DNA of 64,000 bases from an uncultured Actinomycetota bacterium (GTDB taxonomy: Bacteria; Actinomycetota; Thermoleophilia; RBG-16-64-13): assembly GCA_963736705.1 (NCBI GenBank), contig CAVTPV010000005.1:1391056-1455055 (forward strand), read 5' to 3'. This document shows positions 11,586-60,984 of the stretch, in pieces. The translations under genes and the position numbers were made by a program. The notes under the pieces are model-generated. The model did not search any database, was not told the DNA's origin, and saw only the letters and a list, made by a program, of their open reading frames with translations. Numbering within the stretch: position 1 is the stretch's first letter; each line of letters begins with the position of its first letter.

Positions 11586-12520
11586 ATGCGCATCTACCGC
11601 GCGCTGACTGACGTTCCCGATCCTGTGGCGGCCGGCCGGGTGGTGGCCATCGGCGTGTTCGACGGCGTGCATCGCGGGCATCAGCAGATCCTGTCCCAGG
11701 CGGTCGAGGCCGCTCGGGCCACGGGGGCCACGCCGGCCGCGGTGACCTTCTATCCCGCATCCGGACGCTGTGCTCCACCGGCGGACTGCCCCACCGATGC
11801 TGACTCCACTCGAACGGAAGGCCGAACTGCTCGAAGGGCTCGGCCTTGAAGAGTTGGTCGTCGTCCCGTTCGACAGGGAGTTCGCCCGACTGAGCCCGGC
11901 GGCTTTCTGCAGCGCCGTGCTGTCGGAGCATCTGGGAGCGCGCGCTGTGTTCGTGGGACGAGAACTTCCACTTCGGGCACGGCGGCGCAGGTACGCCGGC
12001 GGACCTCCGCCTCTACGGGCAGACCCATGGGTTCGACGTCGTCGCGGTGGCATTGGCCCGGGATGCGGGCGAGGTCATCTCCAGCACTCGGATCCGCGAG
12101 GCCCTCAGAGAGGGAGAGGTGGCAGAGGCCGCCCGGCTTCTGGGCCGCCCACACCGCATCGAGGGGACCGTCATCAGCGGCGTCGGCCGGGGTAGGGGCC
12201 TCGAGGCGCCGACGGCCAACCTCGCGCCGACCCCCGACATGGCGCTGCCCCGTCTGGGCATCTACGTCACCCAGTCCACGGTGGATGGTGGGCACACCTA
12301 TCGCTCGGTCACGAGTGTCGGCACCAACCCCACCTTCGAGAGCGACGGAAGGATCCGCATCGAGACTCTGCTGTTCGATTTCGCGGGGAGTCTGTACGGT
12401 GCGAAGCTGGCGGTGGATCTCCTGGCGCGGATACGGGACCAACGGACGTTCCCGGACCCGGATAGCCTCGCCGCCCAGATCAAAGAGGACGCGGAGATCG
12501 CGCGGTCCTACCAGGGATAA
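11586..12520 (+). CDS. ribF: bifunctional riboflavin kinase / FMN adenylyltransferase (2 frameshifts)
   Basis: VVAIGVFDGVHRGHQQIL..., ...ENFHFGHGGAG..., ...EGTVISGVGRGRGLEAPTANL...GIYV...VTSVGTNPTF. The ATG follows the truB stop at 11581-11583. Confidence 0.9.
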
Positions 12521-12582
12521 GCCACGGGCAGACACGGGGCCGATGGCCCGGGTCGTCTGGACATGGCCGCACCGGATGGTTA

Positions 12583-14738
12583 TTGTATTGCTGTCCTTTT
12601 TCGAAACGGCTGACATGGGCGAGCAAGGGAGGGTTAGTGGCATCTGTGTGCGCTTTGACGTCCGGGGGACCGGCCTGGTCGAGGTGGGTCGCTCGGACAT
12701 CCGTCGGATCGACCGCCGCTTTGTTCGTCTTTCTTCTCGTTCTCATCCTCTCGCCATCCGCGGCCTTCGCCGCAGACGCTCCCACTGTCATCGGGTTGAG
12801 CATCGATTCCGGCCCTGCCGTCGGCGGCGCCACGGTGATCGTCACAGGCACCGGTTTCACCGGGCTCTCGGGGACGGCGGCCGTCTCGTTCGGTGGCACC
12901 GACGCCGCGAGCTACACGGTGGATTCTCCGACCCAGATAACCGCGGTCACTCCTGTGCATGCCGTGGGCAAGGTCGACGTGCGCGTCACGGCCGAAGGGC
13001 TGACCAGCGCCGACACCGGGGCGGACGACTACACGTTCTTGACCCGCTACGACCAGACCGACGCGCGCCTGATCTACGGCGGCACCTGGGCGCCGTTCTC
13101 GACGGCCTCTGCCTGGAAGGGCTCCTACTCACGGGCGGCTACGGCCGGTGCTGCTGTCACGATCTGGTTCAACGGTACGCGGCTCGACTGGCTCGCCATG
13201 AAAGGCACCACGACGGGCAGCGCCGATGTATACCTGGATGACGTCTATCAAGCGACCATCGACTTGGCCGGCGCGGTCCCGGCATACCAGCAGAAGGTGT
13301 GGTCCACCGGCGCGGTCGGCAGCGGCACTCATCACGTGCGCATCGTGCGCAACGCTGCAAGCGCTTCGGGCAAGTACGTGACCATCGACGCGGTCGACGT
13401 CCTCGGATCGGTCATCGACTCGCCGCGCGTCGAGCAGAGCGACAGCCGGATCGCATACGGCGGCGGCACCTGGGCCACGTACAATACCGCCGGCGCCTCG
13501 GCGGGCAGCTACGCTCGCACCAGTAGCTCCAGCGGCGCGGCCATCATCGCTTTCAACGGCACCAAGCTCACGTGGGTGGCCGCAAAGGGCACTACGTTGG
13601 GCAAAGCGTTCGTATCTGTGGACGGCGGGGCGGCGGTCAGTGTCGATCTGGCGGCGGCCGCGGTGGCCTACCAGCAGAAGGTCTGGGACACGGGGACACT
13701 CTCCGCGGGCGACCACGAGGTGAAGATCTGGTACGACGCCTCGAACGCCTCGGGCAAGTTCATCAGCGTGGATGCGGTCGATCTGGAGGGTAGCCTCACC
13801 AAGGCGTACTTCACCACGCGCTACGAGCAGGACGACCCGCGGTTCCTGAACACCGGTCTGTGGTACGTGGGGACCTCCGCCTCGGCGTCAGCCGGCAACT
13901 ACAAGTTCGGCGGCACCGGCACCGGCATCACCGTGAACTTCACGGGTGCGCGGCTCGACTGGATCGCCACGTTCGGGCCCGACCATGGGCATCGCGGACG
14001 TGTCGGTCGACGGCAAGGCGCCGGTGCAGATCGATCTCTACAGCGCGAGCACGGTGTACCAGAAGGTCGCCTACACCACGGGGATCCTCACCAGCGGCAA
14101 GCACGTCGTCGAGATCACCTGGGACGAGAGCAACGGCGCTTCAGGCGCGTACTTCAGCGTGGACGCGTTCGATGTGGTGGGCAGCGTGCCCTGGGAGTTG
14201 ACCCTCTCGGCGTCGCAGGCTCTGTGGGTGGAGCAGAAACTCAGCGACCTGTCCTACCGGCCGGGCACCATCGACGGGGTGTTCGACACCAAGACGCGGG
14301 GCGCCATCATCGCCTTCCAGAAGTGGGAGGGGCTCACCCGTAACGGCGAGGTGTCCGCCTCAGTGCTGAACCGGCTGGCCGCGGCTGTCAAGCCGAAGCC
14401 GACCCATTCGGGCTCCACCTGGATCGAGGTCAACAAGACCAAGCAGGTGCTGCTCTTCTGTAAGGACGGGGTGCTGCAGTGGACCATCCCGGTCTCCACC
14501 GGCAGCGCCAGTGTGGGCATCGTCACGCCGTCGGGAACAATAAGGTCACCAGGAAGACGACGGAGACGAGCCCGCGGTACCAGCCCGCTCTACATCTCCA
14601 CCACGCTGTTGGCCATCCACGGCTATCCCAACGTGCCCACCTACCCGGCAAGCCACGGGTGCGTGCGTACCCAGTACTGGGACCAGGACGCCATATGGCC
14701 GCTGGTCGCCGGTGGGCACGCCGGTCTACGTCTACTAG
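12583..14738 (+). CDS. secreted multidomain L,D-transpeptidase: signal peptide, IPT/TIG, three tandem ~125-aa beta-type repeats, PG-binding domain, YkuD domain (about 4 frameshifts)
   Basis: Signal-like ALFVFLLVLILSPSAAFAADA. IPT/TIG at about 12778-13038. Repeats at 13039-14188. PG_binding-like LSYRPGTIDGVFDTKTRGAIIAFQKWEGL. YkuD catalytic motif HGYPNVPTYPASHGCVR. GTG 12637 after GGGAGGG is the likely start. Stitched stop TAG at 14736-14738. Confidence 0.8.
13039..14188 (+). repeat. three tandem protein-level repeats (~125 aa each) inside the L,D-transpeptidase gene
   Basis: Units start RYDQTDARLIYGG / RVEQSDSRIAYGG / RYEQDDPRFLNTG. Each contains SA.GSY, F.GT.L.W.A.KG, YQQKVW/YQKVA and GK..S/T.DAVD..GS. 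Confidence 0.7.
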
Positions 14739-14767
14739 GCGCGCGCTGCCGCCAGCGCGAGGACTGA

Positions 14768-27418: not shown

Positions 27419-28026
27419 CCTGGAACCTCCCGAACGCCATCACGTTCTTCCGGGTGGTGCTGGTCCCTGTCCTCATGACGTTCCTTCTCGTGGACGTCAA
27501 ATACGGGGATCTCTTCGCGTTGGCGGTGTTCGTCCTGGCGGCCGCCAGCGATTCCCTCGATGGCTACCTGGCCCGGCGCTTCAGGCAGACCACGGCGCTG
27601 GGCGCGTTCCTCGACCCGCTGGCCGACAAGCTTCTGGTGGCCGCGGCGCTCATCTCGCTGGTTCAGATCGATAAGGTGTCCGCCGCGGTTGCTATGGTAG
27701 TGATAGCGCGCGAGTTCGCAGTCACAGGCCTGCGCATGGTGGCGGCGGTGCAGGGTACGGTCATCGCGGCGAGCAGATGGGGGAAGGCCAAGACGGCCAG
27801 CCAGATGCTTGCGATAGCCGTGCTGATCATCGAGGCTCGGTGGATCACTCCACATTGGGAGCCTGCTGGACCGCTCATCAGTACATACCTGGTGTGGCTC
27901 ATGTTGCTGCTGACGGTGGTGAGCGGCGTGGACTATTTCGTCCATGCCCGGCAGCGGATCCAGGAGCATCAGCGCGAGGTGGAGCCCCTCAAGAACCCTG
28001 GCGAGGCTGGGGGAAGCAAGGAGTAG
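27415..28026 (+). CDS. pgsA: CDP-diacylglycerol--glycerol-3-phosphate 3-phosphatidyltransferase
   Basis: MTWNLPNAITFFRV... and the CDP-alcohol phosphatidyltransferase motif DSLDGYLAR...G..LDPLADK. ATGA overlap with the rimO stop. Confidence 0.9.
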   Translation: MTWNLPNAITFFRVVLVPVLMTFLLVDVKYGDLFALAVFVLAAASDSLDGYLARRFRQTTALGAFLDPLADKLLVAAALISLVQIDKVSAAVAMVVIAREFAVTGLRMVAAVQGTVIAASRWGKAKTASQMLAIAVLIIEARWITPHWEPAGPLISTYLVWLMLLLTVVSGVDYFVHARQRIQEHQREVEPLKNPGEAGGSKE

Positions 28027-28030
28027 CAGC

Positions 28031-28612
28031 GTGGAGCAGCAGGGCGGAGACGGGAAGTGGAGACTTTTCGTGGCCGTCCCTCTGCCAGCCGGTTTGCGCG
28101 AGGTGGTCCTGGCGGCGCAACGGGCCCTTCCTTCGGTCCCTGGTCTCCGGCTGTTGGGGCCCGAGCAGTGGCATGTGACTCTGGCCTTCATCGGGGAGGT
28201 GGGGGAGGCCCAAGCCGATATCGCGCGGAAGGTGATCGAAGGGGTCCCGGACGACATGGGGGGCGGCGCTGTCCTGGAGCGATTCCTCATGCTGCCGTCG
28301 GTCCGACGCGGACCCGGGTGGTGACCCTCGAGCTCGGCTGACGGAGCGGAGTGTTCCAGGCCCTTTTTCGAGACGGTCATGGGGGGCCTGGAGGCCGGAG
28401 GGGTCATGCAGCGGGAGAAGAGGCCGTTCAGGCCGCATCTCACCATCGCCAGGCTCAAGAGTCCAGGCGTAGTACGACCAAGGTATGAGAGCGAGCGCGC
28501 GGCGTTTGCGGTACAGTCGGTCTGCCTCTACAGGAGTGAGTTGAGGCGCGAGGGAGCAGTGTACACAGTAGTCAGCCGGAGGGCGTTCGGCCCCGGCGGC
28601 GTTGAAGGGTAA
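28031..28612 (+). CDS. thpR: RNA 2',3'-cyclic phosphodiesterase / 2'-5' RNA ligase family (2H phosphoesterase) (1-2 frameshifts)
   Basis: Two HxT/S motifs: WHVTLAF (ORF 27944) and PHLTIAR (ORF 28379). [10 protein letters not shown]-terminus. Confidence 0.7.
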
Positions 28613-37238: not shown

Positions 37239-38708
37239 CTAATCCAGAACCGACATCGTGTTCGGCAGTTCCTGCCAGTTCAAGATCTGGTAGCTACCTA
37301 CGGTGGGGAAGTACGGCGGCGGGTCGTGCATGAGCCAGTCATCGTACGAATTGCTGCCGTTCGTGAATCCGCCGAGAGTCGTGCCGCTGTAGTTGACGGT
37401 GCTGCGGTAGGGCGTATGGTACGTGCTGACCGAGCCGTAGATGGTCAGCATGTCGCGGATCGGGCCGTAGTTGTCGTTGCTCTCGTCCGCAGCGTTGCAC
37501 GATTCTTTCCCCTGCTGAGCGATGAGCGCGGCGTCGATCTCCATGTCCTGCGTGGAGACGGTACCGCCCGCTCCCAGGGGCGCGTACCTGGGGATCTCCA
37601 CGTTGTTCTGCGCGATGAGCCCCACCGTGACGGTGCCGTCCTTCGCCGAGTAGGTGAGATTGCCCACTACGTGGATGGAAGTGGCCGAGTTCTTGCCCGA
37701 TGGGTTCAGCTGCCCGGAGCTGGCGATGGTGATCCGCCCGTCGAGGTCGGTGCCTTCCACCCAGACGTTGTCGTTGACGTAGATGACGCCGTTGGTGGGG
37801 TAGTCGAGCACTGTGCTCGGCACCGGGGAGGTGGGGACCACGGACGTGAGGCTTCCGCCGCTGCCGCTGGTGGTCTCGCTCTCAGCCGTCACGCGCCTGA
37901 TTTGGTACTGCTCGTTGGGCAGGAGCTTGATGTACCAGCCCTGCCTGGAATCGTGAGCGGTGCTCGTAGAGTAGGGGATGTTCACGCCGTTACCCACCGC
38001 GAGGCTGTTCAGGTTGACGAAGTCCGAGGTCACAGTCGCGAAACTGATCGCGGGTACGGGGAACTGCCAGAACTGCCGGGAGTAGTGATTGGCCGGCACG
38101 GTGGTCAGGTGGCCCGACCACACGCCGTTATGAGTGCCGCCCAAGATGCCGCTTGTGTACGTCGCCCGGGAACACGACATAGTCTCGGTGAGGTTGGCCG
38201 TGTCCGTGCAGATGCCCGTGTTCGAGAAAGTCTTGCCGTGCCAGACGCGATCGAGCGGTCCGCCGATCCACACCTCGTCGTTGGTGAGCAGCAGGTACTG
38301 GCTGAACGAGGGCCTGCCCAGCGAGGCGGTGACCGTTCTGGGGGTGTCCTCCGGACCTGTGGCCTGTCCCGTGACAGTCACGCTCACGTTAGGGTTGTTG
38401 GCGCTGGGAGGAGTCACCTGTATGGCGTACCTACCGTGGACGGAAGAGTCGAAGACGTTTGTCAGGTCGAACTCCTTGAAGAGGGGATCGGGCCCTGTGT
38501 TGCCGGCGATGGCGAAGCCGTTGCTCCTGGAACTCTCCCCACTCGCCACCATCCACAGATACTGGTTCAGGCCGGCCTCGGCCACAGTCAGCGATTGAGT
38601 GTAGGTGCGATCGCGAGATACATGCTGCTGGTTGGCAAGAGCGGATGTGAGCAGGGCGGCCGAGGAGATGCCCAGGGCCACCAGCACGAGCATCGCGAGG
38701 ATCAGCAC
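37239..38708 (-). CDS. large PilX_N/GspK-type pilin-like protein without Glu5 (set A, third gene). The real start is probably upstream (TTG about 38754) across an indel.
   Basis: The in-frame upstream residues ...WSRNEGG plus YVLILAMLVLVALGISSAALLTSALANQQHVSRDRTYTQSLTVAEAGLNQ resemble the PilX N-terminal domain. A roughly 450-aa Asn/Thr/Gly-rich beta-type domain follows. Confidence 0.7.
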   Translation of the reverse strand: MLILAMLVLVALGISSAALLTSALANQQHVSRDRTYTQSLTVAEAGLNQYLWMVASGESSRSNGFAIAGNTGPDPLFKEFDLTNVFDSSVHGRYAIQVTPPSANNPNVSVTVTGQATGPEDTPRTVTASLGRPSFSQYLLLTNDEVWIGGPLDRVWHGKTFSNTGICTDTANLTETMSCSRATYTSGILGGTHNGVWSGHLTTVPANHYSRQFWQFPVPAISFATVTSDFVNLNSLAVGNGVNIPYSTSTAHDSRQGWYIKLLPNEQYQIRRVTAESETTSGSGGSLTSVVPTSPVPSTVLDYPTNGVIYVNDNVWVEGTDLDGRITIASSGQLNPSGKNSATSIHVVGNLTYSAKDGTVTVGLIAQNNVEIPRYAPLGAGGTVSTQDMEIDAALIAQQGKESCNAADESNDNYGPIRDMLTIYGSVSTYHTPYRSTVNYSGTTLGGFTNGSNSYDDWLMHDPPPYFPTVGSYQILNWQELPNTMSVLD

Positions 38709-38773
38709 ATACCCGCCCTCGTTCCGCGACCAGGCTGGGCAGACGGCCGCCCAAGTGATAACGCGTGCGGGAT

Positions 38774-39478
38774 CTAGGCTCCACTGAGACCTCCGTTGTA
38801 TCGCTGGCGGATCTGCACTCGGGTGTCCAGGGCGACGTTGGCCTTTGGTACTCCCGGAGTCTCATTCACCCTGAGGGCGATGTCGATGGCGATGATGCTT
38901 CTCAACTCCGCCGCCGTCGTGGGGTTCGTGATCTCGACGAGGGTGTCGTTCGCGGGTATGGGATTGGTGATGTATGCCGGGTTCATCTGGTAGTACGTGA
39001 ACAGGGCTGCACTCTGGATGCCCTGCATGATGACGATGCCGTCGTTGGTGTACTCCGTGGCGTAGATGGGAGGCGCCTCGGAAGTGTCCGGGGCGAGCGT
39101 GGCCAATCTCAGAGTCGTGCCGTCGAGGTAGTAGCGGCACTTGTCGGAGAGGCCGTCACCGTTGATGTCGGCGAAGAACACGAGTTCGTCAGCCTCGGCG
39201 AGGGCGATCGCATCGGATTGCGATGAGAGGTTCGAGGCGGAGGACTCCGCCATACGCAGATAGCGGGAGATCTCATTGATAGCGTAGCGCGCGTCGTCCT
39301 GGTTGACGATGCGGTGGCTGGTGTCGGCCCACGATCTGACCAGGCTCTCGTAGACCCCGAGTATCGCCATCCCCAGGAGCCCGGCGGTCAGGCAGACCAT
39401 CAGGAGTTCGATGAGAGTGAACCCTCTGGCGCCGCGGAGCGCTTTCTTGAGATTGCGGACTAGTATGTTGCGTCTCAT
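38774..39478 (-). CDS. PilW/GspJ-like minor pilin (set A, second gene)
   Basis: MRRNILVRNLKKALRGARG|FTLIELLMVCLTAGLLGMAIL is a class III signal with Glu5. DINGDGLSD motif. Ends ...VQIRQRYNG. ATG at 39478; the longer ORF to 39652 is rejected. Confidence 0.8.
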   Translation of the reverse strand: MRRNILVRNLKKALRGARGFTLIELLMVCLTAGLLGMAILGVYESLVRSWADTSHRIVNQDDARYAINEISRYLRMAESSASNLSSQSDAIALAEADELVFFADINGDGLSDKCRYYLDGTTLRLATLAPDTSEAPPIYATEYTNDGIVIMQGIQSAALFTYYQMNPAYITNPIPANDTLVEITNPTTAAELRSIIAIDIALRVNETPGVPKANVALDTRVQIRQRYNGGLSGA

Positions 39479-39485
39479 CACGGCC

Positions 39486-41112
39486 CTACTGTCGGTTGTT
39501 GAACGTGAAGCGGTCACCGGTCCAAGTATCTGAGGTGCCGGCGGAGTTCGTGACGGTGATGTGAACCGTGGCCGTCGAGCCGTAGGCTGGGGAGACCGCC
39601 CGGATGCGGGTGGTGGACTCGACGACGAAGCTCGCGGCGTTCTTGGTGCCAAACATCACGGAGGTCACATCGACGAAGTTGGTACCGGTGATGATGACGG
39701 TGGTGCCGCCTCCCTTCCAGCCACTCGTCGGGCTGCGGGTGCCGACAGTGGGCTCGTAGACGTAGTACGAGTACTGGTCCGCGGCCACAGCGGCGGAGGT
39801 TCCGGAGGGGGTGGTGACGGTGACGTCCACGGTGCCCCAGCCGGCCGGGGATACGGCTGTGATACGGGTTGCGGAGTTCACGACGAAGCTTGATGCATCG
39901 GTGTCACCGAATTTGACCGCTGTAGCGCCGCTGAAGTTTGAACCGTTGATGACGACCGTGGTGCCACCGAAGAGGGTGCCATTGTTGGGGCTTATCGAAG
40001 TCACCGCTGGGCCGGTGGAGACGACCAGGTTGACCGTCTGGGTCTGGCCCGGATCGAGGATCACGGGGATCTTTCCGTCCGGCAGCGGAAGGAAGTCCGC
40101 ATCGACCGTAGGCGTGCTCACGCCGCCGGGAAGCTGCAGGGGAGGGTTGTGGGGGGTGACGAGCTCGATGAAGTAGGGCTGGATGGAGGTCGAGTAGCGG
40201 ATGTCCTCAAGCGTGATGTCACCGTTGGAGTCGGTGGTGCGGGTCTCGTCGTAGTCCCAGGGGCTCACGGACATGTAGCCGGTGATCCGGAGAGGGACGT
40301 TGGCGAGCGGCGCGCCGAACTGGTCGGTGAGGTGGATGTTCATGGTGGCGAGCCGGTCCATGATGAGTTGGACCACAGTGGTCACACCAGTCTCCAGCAC
40401 CAGGCCGTTCTGAAGGGCCGCGGGGTTGTAGTCGCCATAGGTGGCGCTCACGAAGTAACCGGCCTCGTCGTCCTCCGGCAGACCGGGGAGCTGCAGGTGG
40501 CCCGAGTCGTCGGTGCGGATGGAGGAGTCGTTGTAGAGCACGTTGGGGTTAAGAAGGTCGTCCCATACGACGAGGTGGGCCCCCTCGATGGGCTCACCAC
40601 TAAGGTCTGTGACCGTGATGTCGAGCGTGCCCCCTTTGGCGCCGCCCGCGACGTTGGTGCTCATGACGACCGGATCCATGCCGCTGGTGTTGAGGGGCGA
40701 CGCTCACGGTCACTCGGCGATAGTTGCCCGGGAAGGGACCCTCGTAGCTGTCGTCCGTGAAGAAGGTGATCTCGCGTTGGATCTCGAACGTGCGTCCGTC
40801 GCGGGTGACGGTCTCGACAGCCTCCAACTGACCGGCCGGGTTGCCGCCCACAGTGCCGACGTCCTGGTACTGCAGGCCGCGGATCGTTTCGATCTCCTCG
40901 GTCGCTATTTGAGCCATCAGGGAGCGAGTGTCGGAGGCCAGGACCCGCAAGGCCGTCGCGGTGAAGAAGTGCGCTATGAAGACCAGGCCGATAACCAGCA
41001 CCAAGCCGGCGACTAGGACCTCCACGAGGCTGAAGCCGTGTTCGGATGAGTCAGTGCGAGTCTCGTCGCCTGCTTGTGGCCTGACCAGTTGCCAAAGCGT
41101 GAGGGACTTCAA
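39486..41112 (-). CDS. modular PilV-like pilin with C-terminal adhesin-type modules, including 2 IPT/TIG domains (set A, first gene; 1 frameshift near 40690)
   Basis: ...SSEHG|FSLVEVLVAGLVLVIGLVF (PilV-type), pilin core ...YRRVTVSV. Next come two CarboxypepD_reg-like beta modules (GTLDITVTDLSGEPIEGAHLVV; NIHLTDQFGAPLANVPLRI), then IPT/TIG x2 at about 39501-40013. TTG 41112 lies 10 nt after AGGAGG. Confidence 0.75.
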
Positions 41113-41182
41113 GCCCAGAATGCCTCCTGCTATGTGTTTCCAGTTCAGGTATCGGCGCGACTGACGTACTTCTTTAGTCCAA

Positions 41183-42447
41183 TCAGGAGCCCTTGGGAAC
41201 CGTGTACTCCTCCCAGGTGTTCGGCACAATGTTGACGTCGATGACGTACTGGCCGTTGATGTTGTTGATGACATCCTGGTTGTAGAGGATCTCGCCGCAA
41301 CTACCATTACCCTTGTTGGTGATGGTGCCCTTGCAGTAAACAGCGCCGTGCATGGCCGACGTGCCCCTCAGCTCGTTGTCACCTACGGTGACCATGATCC
41401 CGTAGAAGTCGCCGGTCCCTTTGAAGTCCCACGCGTTCACGCTGCCGTCAGGAGTGTCGAAGACCACTACCACAGGCTCTTCTTCGGTACCCACTTGGTT
41501 GCTGCCGGCGATCTCGACGGCGGCGGTGCTCTTGATGTACACCACCTTGCCGTTGGCTTTGCCAGAGGTCAAGAACGCGGTGGCCGCCGCTTCGACGGTG
41601 CTGTAGGTCGAGCCGTTCACGGTCATGGGGAGTAGTTCGGGGGCGAAATAGCAGTGCTCGTCCTCGGCGATCTTCTTGAGCGCCATCTGAGTCTGGGTGC
41701 TCACAACGCTCTCCCAGTCGAGTGGGTGTGGCGGCGAGGACATTCTGAGGCGGTTGCGGATCGACCCCTTTGTGCAGGGCTTCGTGGACGTCGTAGTAGA
41801 TGGGAGGGGTGCCCTTTCTCGATCGACACCTGGAAGCCCTGGCCGTTGCTGTCCACCACGCCGGACCACAGGGCGAGAGTGGCCGGGAAGGAGAGCTGCC
41901 ATTGCTGCTTCTCAGCGAGTATCAGGATGCGGTGGCGGTCGTCGCCCACGTTGGCCGTGGCGTCGACAAACATGGCTCCGTCGTTGTTGGAGTCCCACTT
42001 CGGGGCACTGGGATCGGCCACTGTGGTTGTCTCGCCGGTGGCGCTGTTCACGTTGTCGTAAATGTAGACATGGAGGAAGTCGGCGGCCTGGGAGCGAGCC
42101 GGGTCGTACAGGCCCGGGTTGGCCGTCTGCAGAGCGGTCTTGAGGGCTTCCTCGGTGACGGCCGCGGTGGCGTCGTCAGTGGAGCGCCGGGGCCAGTTGA
42201 GGCGCAGCGTCAGCATGCCCGCGTCGACTCCGGCTTCGGAGACATTGAATGACTTGACGTCGATCCGCTCGGTCTCGGCGGACTGGCTCTGAGAGTGGAT
42301 GAGCCAGTATAGAGCGACGCCCAGAATCATGAAGATCATCACGAAGACCACGGCGACGACCATAGCGATGCCGTCTTCATGACCCAATCTGGTGGGACGG
42401 CGCACGTGCCTCGGCGCCTTCGGGAGGACTTGCTGTGACGTCTTCAT
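41183..42447 (-). CDS. PilX_N/GspK-type pilin-like protein without Glu5 (set B, third gene; 2 frameshifts about 41770-41815)
   Basis: ...LGHEDG|IAMVVAVVFVMIFMILGVALYWLIHSQSQSAETERIDVKSFNVSEAG resembles PilX_N. C-terminal VVVVFDTPDG...GDFYGIMVTVGDNELRGTSAMHGAVYCKG. Confidence 0.7.
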
Positions 42448-42470
42448 ATCCGATGTCTCCTCGGGACGCC

Positions 42471-43145
42471 TTAGTATTGGCGCAAGTTGCGGGGTTGGAC
42501 GGTCGAAATGAGCTCGTGCGCGATCGGGCGGTTGTTCTCGAAGATGTCGATGAATAGGCGTATCTGCACTTCGCGGATCAGGCTCGGGTCGGCGATCGGG
42601 GTGGACATGGGCTGTCCGTCCGTGCCTATGTAGGTGAAGAGGGAGGGTTTCGTGGAGCCGTTGGTGACACAGTTGCTGACCAGGCGAACGTGGTCGCCGC
42701 TGGCGAATGAGGGATCCCCGGAGTCGCTCGTGTCCCGGTAAAGCGTCTGGTTGGCGGTGTCGACCCGGAATCGGCAGAGTTCGAGATCGTGACCGGAGTC
42801 ACGATCGGCATCGGTCCAGAAGATGAGGCTGTTGCTGTCAGCAGAATATATGACGACGTTCAGGGCCTCGGTCGGCGCGGGGTCGGGCGCGCGGGAGGTG
42901 CGGATGAACTCGACCATCTCGCTCATTGCGGTCCGTGCCTGGGCCTGAGCTGCGAAGTCATCCTCGGCGAACGTATAGGTCCGTTGCAGGCCGAACCATA
43001 TGCTGTAGATGCCCCCGAGGACCACCAGCAGTATGATCATCACCACCATGAGTTCCATGAGGGTTAGGCCGGCTTGGCCCCTCGCCAGCCGGCTGCCGGC
43101 ATCGAGGCGGTCTTTGAGGTTTGAGGGTCCCATGCCGCCCGCCAT
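42471..43145 (-). CDS. PilW/GspJ-like minor pilin (set B, second gene)
   Basis: MAGGMGPSNLKDRLDAGSRLARGQAG|LTLMELMVVMIILLVVLGGIY. DADRDSGHD motif. Ends ...VQPRNLRQY. The ATG overlaps the stop of the upstream gene (TGATG). Confidence 0.8.
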   Translation of the reverse strand: MAGGMGPSNLKDRLDAGSRLARGQAGLTLMELMVVMIILLVVLGGIYSIWFGLQRTYTFAEDDFAAQAQARTAMSEMVEFIRTSRAPDPAPTEALNVVIYSADSNSLIFWTDADRDSGHDLELCRFRVDTANQTLYRDTSDSGDPSFASGDHVRLVSNCVTNGSTKPSLFTYIGTDGQPMSTPIADPSLIREVQIRLFIDIFENNRPIAHELISTVQPRNLRQY

Positions 43146-44704
43146 CAGTTGATCGTGAACACGGGGTTGGGCGTAGAGCCGGCCATGAAGGAACCGGTGG
43201 TGCTCGCACCGGTCACCGTCACCTGGTACCAGTCGCCGGAGATGACGTTCTGGTTGGTGGTCTTGTTCTTCTTGGCGGTGAACGAGTACGTAGCGTGCGC
43301 TCCCACGAACTTGACCGTGTAGCTGGTGCCCGTGTTGTTTCGGACCGAGACCGAGACCAGATGGGTGGTGGTCGTGGTGCTGGACGTGGACGTCGTGGTG
43401 CTGGACGTGGTCGTCACCGTTTCCAGAGTCGTGGTGGTGTTGGTCGGCGGGATGTAGGTCTCCGCCTGCGCGGCGGCGCCCGCATTGCCCGGGTCGCAGA
43501 CATCGACGGCCCAGAGCTGGTATTGGTAGTAGTTCTGGGTGCTCGCGTTGCCCCACGGATCGGTGTCCGATCCGACGTCGCCCACATCCTTGTAGGTGGT
43601 GAGGGCCGGGTCGAGGGCATTGGACACAGTCACCCAGGGGAACCAGCCGCTGGTCGAGTAGTCCCACTTGCGCCGTTGGAGTACCCAGTGGTCGCGGTCG
43701 CGCTCGGAGCCGCTCAGCCAGTTAAGGATGATCGTGTGGTTGTCGGTCTGAGGCGTCGCCACGAGTCCTGTAGGAGCGTCGGGATTCGTCCTTTCGACGC
43801 GCAGGCGCAGCCTCCAGGTGTTGCCGGGCTCGTTGTACTCGTTGTAGCAGACGGCCCGGCATTCCCAGTAGCCGTCGGGGACGATGGCCTCGTCGAACGT
43901 GTATTCGAACCAGACGTCTTGACAGTTGGCCACCGGCATCCTTGGTATAGCGGATGTCGCTGGTGCCGATCTTGTAGTCGCTCGCGGCACTGCCCAAGGG
44001 CACGGCCTGGCCCTGCGTCGTCGATCATGGCGGCGCGCATGTAGACGTTGCGCGCTGTGGGGGTGGACGCGGTCAGATCGTAGAAGATCAGCGCCCAGTC
44101 GGCCTGTGCCACATAGTACTTGAGGGTGGTGTTGTGAGTGTTCTGGAGGAGTCGTGAACGGAGATCCAAGCGGATCCGTGGCGGTGGGGGTGACGTCAAG
44201 GCTCGAGCCGCGCGGTCCTAGGAACTGCTGGTGGACCAGAGTGGTGACGGAGGCCGGTGAGACCCGAGGGGGAGCCTCCCAGCCGACGTTGACGGTCACC
44301 TCTTTGAGCGTTCCTTCTTGGTACGTCTGGTTGTTGACCACGTAGGTGACGGTGAAGCCCTGGTCGCGGACCGTCTCACTCGTGCCAAAAAGGCTCTCCA
44401 GCGTCCTGGTGCCCAGTGAGGCGTCTGACGTCTTTCATCTGCTCCGTGTAGATCTCGCGGTAGTCGAGCTGCCGGACCAGTTCCATCTTCTGCCTGGCGA
44501 CGTTGGTCGCGATGGAGCGCATGCGGATGGTGGAAGCTTGTGTGAGGCCGGTCACGAAGAGCGGCACAATGCCGGCCATGGCGATCAGGAGTATGACGGC
44601 GGCGACCATGACCTCGATGAGGGTCATGCCGCGATTTGCCGCGGATCTTGCGAGCCGTGGATGCCTGTGATGGAGTGGGCGGTTGAGAAAGAAGCGAAGC
44701 GCAT
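43145..44704 (-). CDS. modular PilV/GspI-like pilin with FN3 domain, Thr/Ser-rich linker and C-terminal beta domain (set B, first gene; about 4-5 frameshifts)
   Basis: MRFASFSTAHSITGIHGSQDPRQ..RG|MTLIEVMVAAVILLIAMAGIV, pilin core ...GFTVTYVV...LKEVTVNVGWE. FN3-like APTGLVATPQTDNHTIILNWL...YYQYQLWAVD at about 43487-43783. TNTTTTLETVTTTSSTTTSTSSTTTTT at about 43364-43447. GAAGGAG precedes ATG 44704. Confidence 0.7.
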
Positions 44705-59709: not shown

Positions 59710-60984
59710 GCAGGTCAAGCAAGAAGAACAACGGAGCGCGCATCGATACCGGGTATCAGTCTCGTGCTGCTCGTGGCGGCGCTTGTTGGTGGTCGCTGCT
59801 GACGGCGGCCGCCTGCGGCGGAGAGACCACCACGACCACGGCGGCCGGCGGGACCGTCACCACGCGGCGGTACCGCTCCCACCGGCGATCCCATCGTCAT
59901 CGGCGCCATCGTCTCGGCCACCGGCCCGGGCGCGGCTCTTGGCGAGCAGGAGCGGAACGTCCTGGAGATGGAGCAGGAGCTCATCAACGCCAGCGGCGGG
60001 ATCCTGGGCAGGCCGGTCAAGATCGTCGTGGAAGACGACAAGAGCGACCCGAAGGAAGCCGTCACGGCGGCCAACAAGCTGCTTTCGCAGGACAAAGCCA
60101 TCGCGCTGATCGCGGCCACCACGTCGTCCTCGACGCTGGCCGTCAAGGAGATCGCCGCGCAGAAGGGCGTTCCGCAGATGGCCATGGCCGCGGCCAACGA
60201 CATCACCGACAAGGAACCCATGCGAGTGGATCTGGCGGACGCCGCAGAAAGACGCCATGGCCGTGCAGCGGGCCCTCGACTACATCTCCAAGAACCTCAA
60301 GGTCAAGAAGATCGCCGTTCTCCACGACGAGAACGCTTTCGGTTCTTCCGGCGACGCCGAGATCGCCAAGGCGGCGCCGGCCTTGGGGCTGGAAGTCGTG
60401 GCCTCTGAGTCGTACAAGACCGCCGACACCGACATGACCGCGCAGCTCACCAAGATCAAGGGCACCAACCCGGAAGTCCTCGTGGTCTGGGGCACCAACC
60501 CCGGTCCCGCGCTGGCCGCGAAGAACATGAAGCAACTCGGCATGACCATCCCGTACGTGGGCAGCCACGGCATCGCCAACAAGACCTTCATCGAACTGGC
60601 CGCCGACGCAGCTGAGGGCGTGGTCTTCCCGGCCGGCCGTCTGCTCGTTCCGAGCTCTATCACCGACGCCAAGCAGAAGGAAGTCACCGAAGCCTTCATC
60701 GCCGCCTACACGGCGAAGTACAACGCCGCGCCCAACCCGTTCGCCGGGTACGCCTTCGAGGCCATCACCCTGCTGGCCGACGCCATCACCCGGGCGGGCA
60801 GCACCGACGCCGTCGCCATCCAGACCGCGCTCGACGCGACCAGCCGGCTTCGCCGCGCCGGACGGCATCTACAACTACACGCAAGACCAACCATGACGGT
60901 CTGACCGCGTCGGACATGATCATGGTCAAGATCCAGGGCGGTACCTGGGTCATCGCCGAGCATACGGAGAGAGCGCTTGCTTGA
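59706..60984 (+). CDS. branched-chain amino acid ABC transporter substrate-binding lipoprotein (about 5 frameshifts)
   Basis: Lipobox LLTAAAC|GG. ...PIVIGAIVSATGPGAALGEQ..., VVEDDKSDPKEAVTAANKLL..., ...LVVWGTNPGPALAAKNMKQLG... Confidence 0.8.

Follow-up and report, generated by a model that had tools for sequence, protein, structure and literature searches.

Gene organisation of the locus

We analysed a window of 64,000 nucleotides from an uncultured Actinomycetota bacterium known only from metagenomes (Thermoleophilia, lineage RBG-16-64-13; assembly GCA_963736705.1, contig CAVTPV010000005.1, positions 1,391,056 to 1,455,055). All positions below are those of the window unless another contig is named. 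The minus-strand locus at 39486-41112 is likely to encode a modular type IV minor pilin, in which a PilV/GspI-like head is fused to four beta-sandwiches that would form a rod displayed at the pilus tip. In the window the gene is divided between two minus-strand open reading frames (ORFs), one at 40600-41307 carrying the pilin part and one at 39486-40679 encoding 397 residues; the gene as a whole was delimited by joining the two frames and by comparison with single-ORF orthologues. The joined frames give a protein of 542 residues, of which 516 remain in the mature form (54.5 kDa, isoelectric point 4.3, no cysteine).

The upstream gene ends at 41183. Translation of the pilin likely starts at a TTG codon (41112-41110), with an AGGAGG Shine-Dalgarno sequence 10 nt upstream (41128-41123). 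This start opens a 26-residue class III leader (41035-41112, minus strand) that ends in Gly(-1), and the homologue P0002 shares both start and leader. The leader terminates in ...SEHG and the mature N-terminus reads G|FSLVEVLVAG, with Phe at +1 and Glu at +5. The sequence ...SEHG|FSLVEVLVAGLVLVIGLVFIAHFF thus has the leader, Gly(-1), Phe(+1), Glu(+5) and hydrophobic stretch of about 20 residues that define class III prepilins, and in the family alignment G26, F27 and E31 were invariant across 12 homologues. A first-pass annotation of this DNA had described a PilV-type N-terminus (G|FSLVE) followed by a small pilin core, and both are present.

Two reading frames, one gene

We used the two frames joined in silico as the query for homologue searches and obtained 84 homologues. 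The two nearest relatives are uninterrupted ORFs: P0001 (556 residues) is 95% identical to the joined protein and P0002 (542 residues) is 86% identical. About 17 more homologues with TIG domains also read through the junction without interruption. Across the junction P0001 and P0002 have the sequence ...NYRRVTVSV(V/A/T)P(L/V)NTSGM(D/A)PVVMSTN(V/I)AGGAKGGTLDITV..., with no genuine stop between the pilin part and the rest. Judged by these comparisons, the two frames are parts of one ORF and the modular pilin is a single gene, as the first-pass annotation had proposed. Automatic annotation of this genome will mis-call it as two.

DNA alignments and the protein continuity in P0001 and P0002 placed the break at 40698^40697, close to the position near 40690 suggested earlier. 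Between these two bases 2 nt are missing relative to L009, the contig that encodes P0001: the window reads GTCG--CCCCTC and L009 reads GTCGTTCCCCTC. Before the break the frame is that of 41112, and after it that of ATG 40679; the second frame is open from 40703 to 39486. After ...GNYRRVTVSVA the first frame runs into a tail rich in Arg, His and Gln (PQHQRHGSGRHEHQRRGRRQRG...) and stops at 40600.

We considered whether the two ORFs might instead belong to two genes, one for a short PilV-like pilin (41112-40600) and another, starting at ATG 40679, for a 397-residue beta-sandwich/TIG protein in its own right. Both frames are open and the ATG is there. However, all relatives are fused, and protein conservation extends across the boundary, including the eight codons upstream of ATG 40679. 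The 397-residue ORF begins MDPVVMSTNVAGG and has neither a signal peptide nor a hydrophobic stretch, although TIG arrays are extracellular, and the out-of-frame tail PQHQRHGSGRHEHQRRGRRQRG... of the first ORF has a counterpart in none of the aligned homologues. A programmed frameshift or a phase-variable switch, by which the display module could be added or left out, was weighed in the same way. The break lies exactly at the linker between pilin and module, beside a run of four C, and surface adhesins are often phase-variable. Yet a C4 run is shorter than slipped-strand phase variation requires, relatives need no shift, and housekeeping genes of this assembly show similar breaks. We rejected both readings on the ground that the orthologues are single ORFs through the junction; separate genes seem hardly credible, and a switch is extremely improbable.

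The gap itself is very probably an assembly indel. The assembly (6 contigs, 3.23 Mb, estimated completeness 71%) carries frame errors in many places. Its rpoB gene (G000:C1:141241-144713) is found in eight consecutive pieces with at least six frame changes, and it is this state of the consensus that makes an assembly indel the most likely cause of the break. Within the window, a Peripla_BP_6 solute-binding gene (59803-60901) is split between two frames at profile position 100/105, a PilX-like gene at 41183-42447 occupies two overlapping frames (41701-42447 and 41183-41902), and the neighbouring modular pilin of the upstream cassette (see below) has several frame breaks. Errors of this kind across the genome are the signature of an unpolished long-read consensus, and any apparent frameshift or pseudogene in it is therefore to be distrusted.

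The alternative is that the 2-nt deletion is real and that this strain carries a pseudogene, making a pilin of about 170 residues with a 30-residue out-of-frame tail and no Ig-like rod. Three observations speak for it. A 2-nt gap at GTCG^CCCC is unlike a typical 1-nt homopolymer slip, a second cassette of I-, J- and K-type minor-pilin genes at the locus could make this one dispensable, and core-only relatives of 335-405 residues exist, so that tail-less versions can be functional. Against it stands the essential rpoB gene, whose frame changes imply that breaks in this assembly are mostly artefacts. In addition, L009 is 98.4% identical to window positions 41039-37193 over 3.85 kb with only two indels, the 2-nt gap and a single additional G at about 38727 of the window. 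Both break window frames, one in the modular pilin and the other at the 5' end of the PilX-like gene, while the three L009 genes of 556, 234 and 514 residues are intact and no indel breaks an L009 frame. Past the break the gene keeps 98% identity to L009 and a third-position GC content of 0.85, with no further disruption. We regard a real deletion as unlikely. JGI metagenome contigs were also scanned with an exact pattern of the junction that tolerated 0-3 additional bases; there was no match.

Other overlapping same-strand ORF pairs in the window were also considered as candidate frameshifts, but Pfam searches resolved them mostly into neighbouring genes (rimP/nusA, rbfA/DHH); only the Peripla_BP_6 pair was a proven split. 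Separately, a plus-strand ORF for a LigT-like phosphoesterase ends at 28324, and the open stretch that comes next (28325-28612) is in frame with it; 27923-28612 may be one gene interrupted by a stop codon or by a wrongly called base.

The pilin head

The pilin module comprises mature residues F27-V138 (40699-41034, minus strand) and was delimited from an AlphaFold2 (AF2) model, TIGR02523 and Foldseek. AF2 run on the window's own 140 residues gave a helix at 29-78 and strands at 99-104, 107-118 and 131-139, with a predicted local distance difference test score (pLDDT) of 89.6. The model shows the lollipop fold of pilins, with a long alpha1 helix packed on an antiparallel, three-stranded sheet.

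Profile searches gave weaker signals. PF07963 (N_methyl) scored 18.3 bits in the window ORF, below the cut-off of 21.2. Other family members pass prepilin profiles (PF07963, 28.9 bits in P0028; TIGR02532, 23.9 bits against a cut-off of 16.3). The PilV profile TIGR02523 reached 28.8 bits in P0002 and 26.5 bits in P0001, below its equivalog cut-off of 52.2, and the match covers model positions 2-57 only, that is the N-terminal 55 residues. NCBIfam holds no dedicated family model for the modular pilin.

The top Foldseek matches of the head in the PDB were 9a1f_R (a model of XcpGHIJK), 3cfi_J and 2ret_G, all non-significant (E 0.5-3.8). Their template modelling (TM) scores, normalised to the target, were 0.53-0.57, and root-mean-square deviations were 2.5-3.6 A for the EpsI chains and 13.9 A for the Xcp model chain. 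3cfi_J and 2ret_G are 81-residue chains of EpsI:EpsJ entries, which we take to be EpsI. When the PDB was searched with a sequence profile built on the pilin module, matches were confined to the generic N-terminal helix, in geopilins. The gene is accompanied by those for J-type and Glu5-less K-type partners, as expected of a PilV/GspI-type (I-type) subunit. With a sub-threshold TIGR02523 match, best if non-significant fold matches to EpsI, and an I-J-K gene order, the module looks like a PilV/GspI-like pilin.

Four beta-sandwiches follow the head

To see the whole protein we modelled P0002 with 80 homologues in AF2 (mean pLDDT 91.5; predicted TM score 0.68). After a disordered leader the model has a 50-residue alpha1 helix (29-78), a three-stranded sheet (99-140) and four beta-sandwiches, bounded at about 149-251, 256-364, 370-451 and 456-539. 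All four map to the minus strand of the window.

The third and fourth sandwiches are IPT/TIG domains. In the 397-residue ORF, PF01833 (TIG) scored 72.8 bits (cut-off 20.9; E 2.3e-20) over two stretches, in agreement with the two IPT/TIG domains described in the first-pass annotation. TIG 1 (residues ~370-451; 39762-40007) corresponds to the stretch at residues 224-305 of that ORF, and TIG 2 (residues ~456-539; 39498-39749) to the second stretch and to the last sandwich of the AF2 model. The two are 49% identical in pairwise alignment. They are 7-8-stranded in the model and matched Met/plexin IPT domains in Foldseek (E 1e-10). The NCBIfam model NF058597 (CoaZ_rpt_PGGG, choice-of-anchor Z repeat) matches the TIG repeats of homologues.

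The first two sandwiches were harder to name. Sandwich 1 (residues ~149-251; 40362-40670) is transthyretin/CarboxypepD_reg-like by its AF2 fold and by PF13620 matches in aligned homologues, and opens with NVAGGAxGGTLDITVTD, the best-conserved motif of the family. Sandwich 2 (residues ~256-364; 40023-40349) is CarboxypepD_reg/MG4-like by its fold and by profile matches in P0013. PF13620 was not reported in the window ORF at E <= 0.01 (cut-off 32.3), and only a sub-threshold SpaA/prealbumin-like match (E 0.006) was found there. Homologues aligned in the same columns do pass it (P0013, 40.0 bits; P0028, 38.6 bits; P0032, 61.7 bits), and P0013 has two PF13620 stretches and a SpaA match at 250-299. 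The CarboxypepD_reg assignment is therefore made by homology and fold and not directly. Two such modules had been claimed before; as beta-sandwiches with PF13620-positive relatives they stand, but in the window copy the profile itself is not reached.

When the whole model was searched with Foldseek, the matches were Met/plexin IPT arrays, stalk domains of Bacteroides SGBP-B and SpaA-type sortase pilins. All are generic Ig-like strings, and their dominance made the search uninformative as to a ligand.

A TIG domain also occurs elsewhere in the window. On the plus strand at 12466-14764, one frame holds TIG together with CE2_N (carbohydrate esterase 2 N-terminal) and another holds PG_binding_1 with a YkuD L,D-transpeptidase domain. 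TIG spans residues 106-190 of the frame starting at 12466 (12781-13035), and PG_binding_1 and YkuD lie at 13937-14764. The region probably encodes a single secreted protein of several domains that an indel has divided, which fits the earlier placement of a TIG domain at 12778-13038 in an L,D-transpeptidase.

Neighbouring genes and machinery

The modular pilin heads an I-J-K triad on the minus strand, with a PilW-like and a Glu5-less PilX-like gene following the PilV-like one. The PilW/GspJ-like minor pilin (38774-39478; ARG|FTLIELLMV, Glu5 present) starts 8 nt past the modular pilin stop. The PilX/GspK-like large subunit (37239-38784; GG|YVLIL, no Glu5) has 514 residues in L009; in the window its 5' end is out of frame, the extra G at ~38727 costing it its first ~25 codons relative to L009. 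The cassette contains no H-type gene.

A paralogous I-J-K cassette lies directly upstream (41183-44704, minus strand) and again encodes a modular PilV-like, a PilW-like and a Glu5-less PilX-like protein. Its modular pilin (43145-44704), interrupted by several frame breaks, has the N-terminus RG|MTLIEVMV and a core ending in ...LKEVTVNVGWEAPP, then an FN3-like segment, a Thr/Ser run of ~27 residues and a beta-rich end. A homologous copy on L010 is broken too. Both PilX-like proteins of the window lack Glu5 (G|YVLIL and G|IAMVV), and both genes are frame-broken.

L009 lacks this upstream cassette altogether. Aligning L009 1-800 with window 41039-44691 showed the whole I-J-K cassette to be missing, with 98.4% identity on its downstream side and 94% upstream, and the lone modular pilin of L009 uses the promoter, ribosome-binding site and ATG that in the window belong to the first cassette. 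By this alignment, strains are polymorphic for the presence or absence of the upstream minor-pilin cassette.

On the opposite strand there are two major pilin genes (44987, 46183) and a third pseudopilin set. The genome also encodes cognate type IV pilus machinery. A prepilin peptidase (PF01478, Peptidase_A24, 64.9 bits) lies at C5:280522, and adjacent PilB/PilT-type assembly ATPases (T2SSE/PF00437, 481 and 165 bits) lie at C5:1506245-1508303, ~51 kb beyond the window. The PilY1 profile PF05567 had no match in this genome, yet it had none in 14 control genomes either, so absence of PilY1 is not established. A replacement of PilY1-type adhesins by the modular pilin, as suggested in the first-pass annotation, is conjectural.

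Family distribution and the variable distal end

In about 20 related loci the modular pilin is followed by a J-like pilin of ~205-216 mature residues. These loci, like the homologues at large, come mostly from metagenome-assembled genomes labelled Gaiellales, Thermoleophilia or Actinomycetota; a single locus carries the label Anaerolineae. The core was matched at E <= 1e-10 by 53 of 400 sampled genomes of the phylum; most of these matches are restricted to the pilin head and lie in open frames of about 450-600 residues.

We built a tree on the shared core, the pilin head plus two beta-sandwiches, and found three architectures: core only (17 rows), core with a third beta-sandwich of ~110 residues (a clade of 39) and core with two, three or four TIG domains (17). 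TIG-bearing and core-only rows are interleaved within one clade, which requires at least three changes, and the distal end is therefore evolutionarily labile. From the tree, the distal part appears to be exchangeable, being nothing, a third beta-sandwich or 2-4 TIGs.

Tandem TIG repeats are frequent in this genome. We found 35 matches, 35-53% identical to the pilin TIGs, in large proteins with frames of up to ~1,450 residues (C5:62-150 kb, C5:630 kb, C5:1517-1519 kb, C1:613-628 kb and C4:404-409 kb). It is possible that such proteins were donors of the distal module of the pilin.

Comparison with known systems

Known I subunits are ~120-130 residues long and have no C-terminal modules. GspI, EpsI, XcpV and PilV, the I members of the HIJK tip complexes (GspHIJK, FimU-PilVWX), share with the window protein a small head with a three-stranded sheet and a PilV-type N-terminal helix. 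Its best fold matches, weak as they are, are to EpsI and the Xcp model chain, and its gene is likewise followed by a J-like and then a Glu5-less K-like gene. It differs in scoring below the TIGR02523 cut-off of 52.2 and in having no H-type gene in the cassette.

The first-pass annotation likened the protein to the modular pilins PilB and PilC of Streptococcus sanguinis, and the finding of pilin and non-pilin domains in one ORF in P0001, P0002 and others bears this out. Like PilB (vWA) and PilC (lectin), it is a class III prepilin with a small pilin module, a short linker and a bulky non-pilin module (PMC8179133, PMC9934059); it too comes from a monoderm lineage, is encoded with partner minor pilins and has predicted tip display. 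There is no detectable sequence relationship, however, and the modules are two transthyretin-like and two IPT/TIG domains instead of vWA or lectin. The carrier in the window protein also looks I-type, which is noteworthy because the I-like subunit of S. sanguinis, PilA, is non-modular (PMC9934059).

The catalogue of Raynaud et al. 2021 contains 1,219 modular pilins, which fall into 264 architectures. In their Dataset S1, IPR012902-PF13620 is the third commonest (66 proteins) and IPR012902-IPR002909/IPT has 5 proteins. These share with the window protein a prepilin motif followed by a CarboxypepD_reg ('carbohydrate-binding-like fold') or IPT domain, but the combined architecture of two PF13620-like and two IPT domains is not listed. 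Pilin-PF13620 and pilin-IPT fusions are thus kinds already known, of which the window protein is an uncharacterised further example. With prepilin motif and PF13620 both below threshold, such proteins are easily missed by a survey of this type.

CofB, of the type IVb pilus of enterotoxigenic E. coli (ETEC), also has a pilin domain followed by beta-repeat and beta-sandwich domains and is located at the tip (PMC8179133). It is however a trimer and an adapter for secreted CofJ, has no sequence relationship to the window protein, and contains no domain that is recognisable as a Pfam family. PilY1/PilC of diderm type IVa pili resembles the window protein in its proposed role, as an effector with variable modules held at the tip through a minor-pilin complex, but is itself a non-pilin with a C-terminal beta-propeller (IPR008707). 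PilY1 is reported absent in monoderms (PMC9934059).

Proposed role

The prepilin would be cleaved after Gly26 and anchored in the membrane by its hydrophobic alpha1 helix. There it would pair with its J- and K-type partners to nucleate the pilus, and it is as a co-nucleator with these subunits that it would be carried to the tip. In established models, assembly is primed by a complex of I, J and K subunits, which then remains at the tip (PMC9934059, PMC8179133), and bulky modular pilins have been modelled to fit only there (PMC9934059). From the tip the acidic four-domain Ig-like rod of ~400 residues would project, and may bind a ligand such as a polysaccharide or a cell surface, or act as a spacer.

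Several points weigh against this reading. TIG and transthyretin-like domains are often mere spacers, and profile and fold searches of the modular pilin identified no ligand-binding site, lectin-type domain or metal site. PF07963, TIGR02523 and PF13620 all fall under their curated cut-offs in the window copy, and the matches of the head to EpsI are statistically non-significant (E 0.5-4). The gap in the gene is of 2 nt and no simple +/-1 homopolymer error. Finally, we infer tip display and an adhesin role from the architecture and from published models.

In a rival reading, the gene would be intact and its product associated with pili, but the rod would serve as a passive spacer or decorate the shaft and would not be a tip adhesin. 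It might, for example, carry a partner, such as the large PilX-like subunit, clear of the filament or across the cell envelope. The lack of a recognisable lectin-like or enzymatic end domain keeps this a live alternative; the best fold matches include stalks (the N-terminal Ig-like domains of SGBP-B, the IPT stalks of Met and plexin), and core-only relatives exist. On the other hand, the distal module varies within the family between none, one beta-sandwich and 2-4 TIGs, as is typical of a ligand-facing end, and the modelling that fits bulky modular pilins only at the tip (PMC9934059) argues the same way. We judge a spacer possible but the less probable role.

A tip-displayed modular pilin would also allow a bolder proposal, which we put forward tentatively: in this actinobacterial lineage the I-type nucleator itself would have become the tip effector, with an exchangeable distal module, and tandem I-J-K cassettes would provide alternative tips. 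Counting the FN3-like domain on its Thr-rich linker in the neighbouring paralogous cassette as a further such module is similarly doubtful. If the proposal is true, I-J-K cassettes whose presence varies among strains that are 98% identical would be a cassette system by which the target of pilus attachment can be switched.

Modular pilins account for the gain of new functions by simple type IV filaments. To our knowledge only a few have been studied (S. sanguinis PilB and PilC, and CofB of ETEC), all from pathogens or commensals. The present family is common in abundant uncultured Actinomycetota of soil and sediment (Gaiellales, Thermoleophilia), and in it the module seems to sit on the conserved I-type initiator, with a distal end that differs among members in type and copy number. 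Should the rod bind a defined ligand, it would provide a compact, cysteine-free scaffold for tip display and would reveal what these uncultured bacteria attach to.

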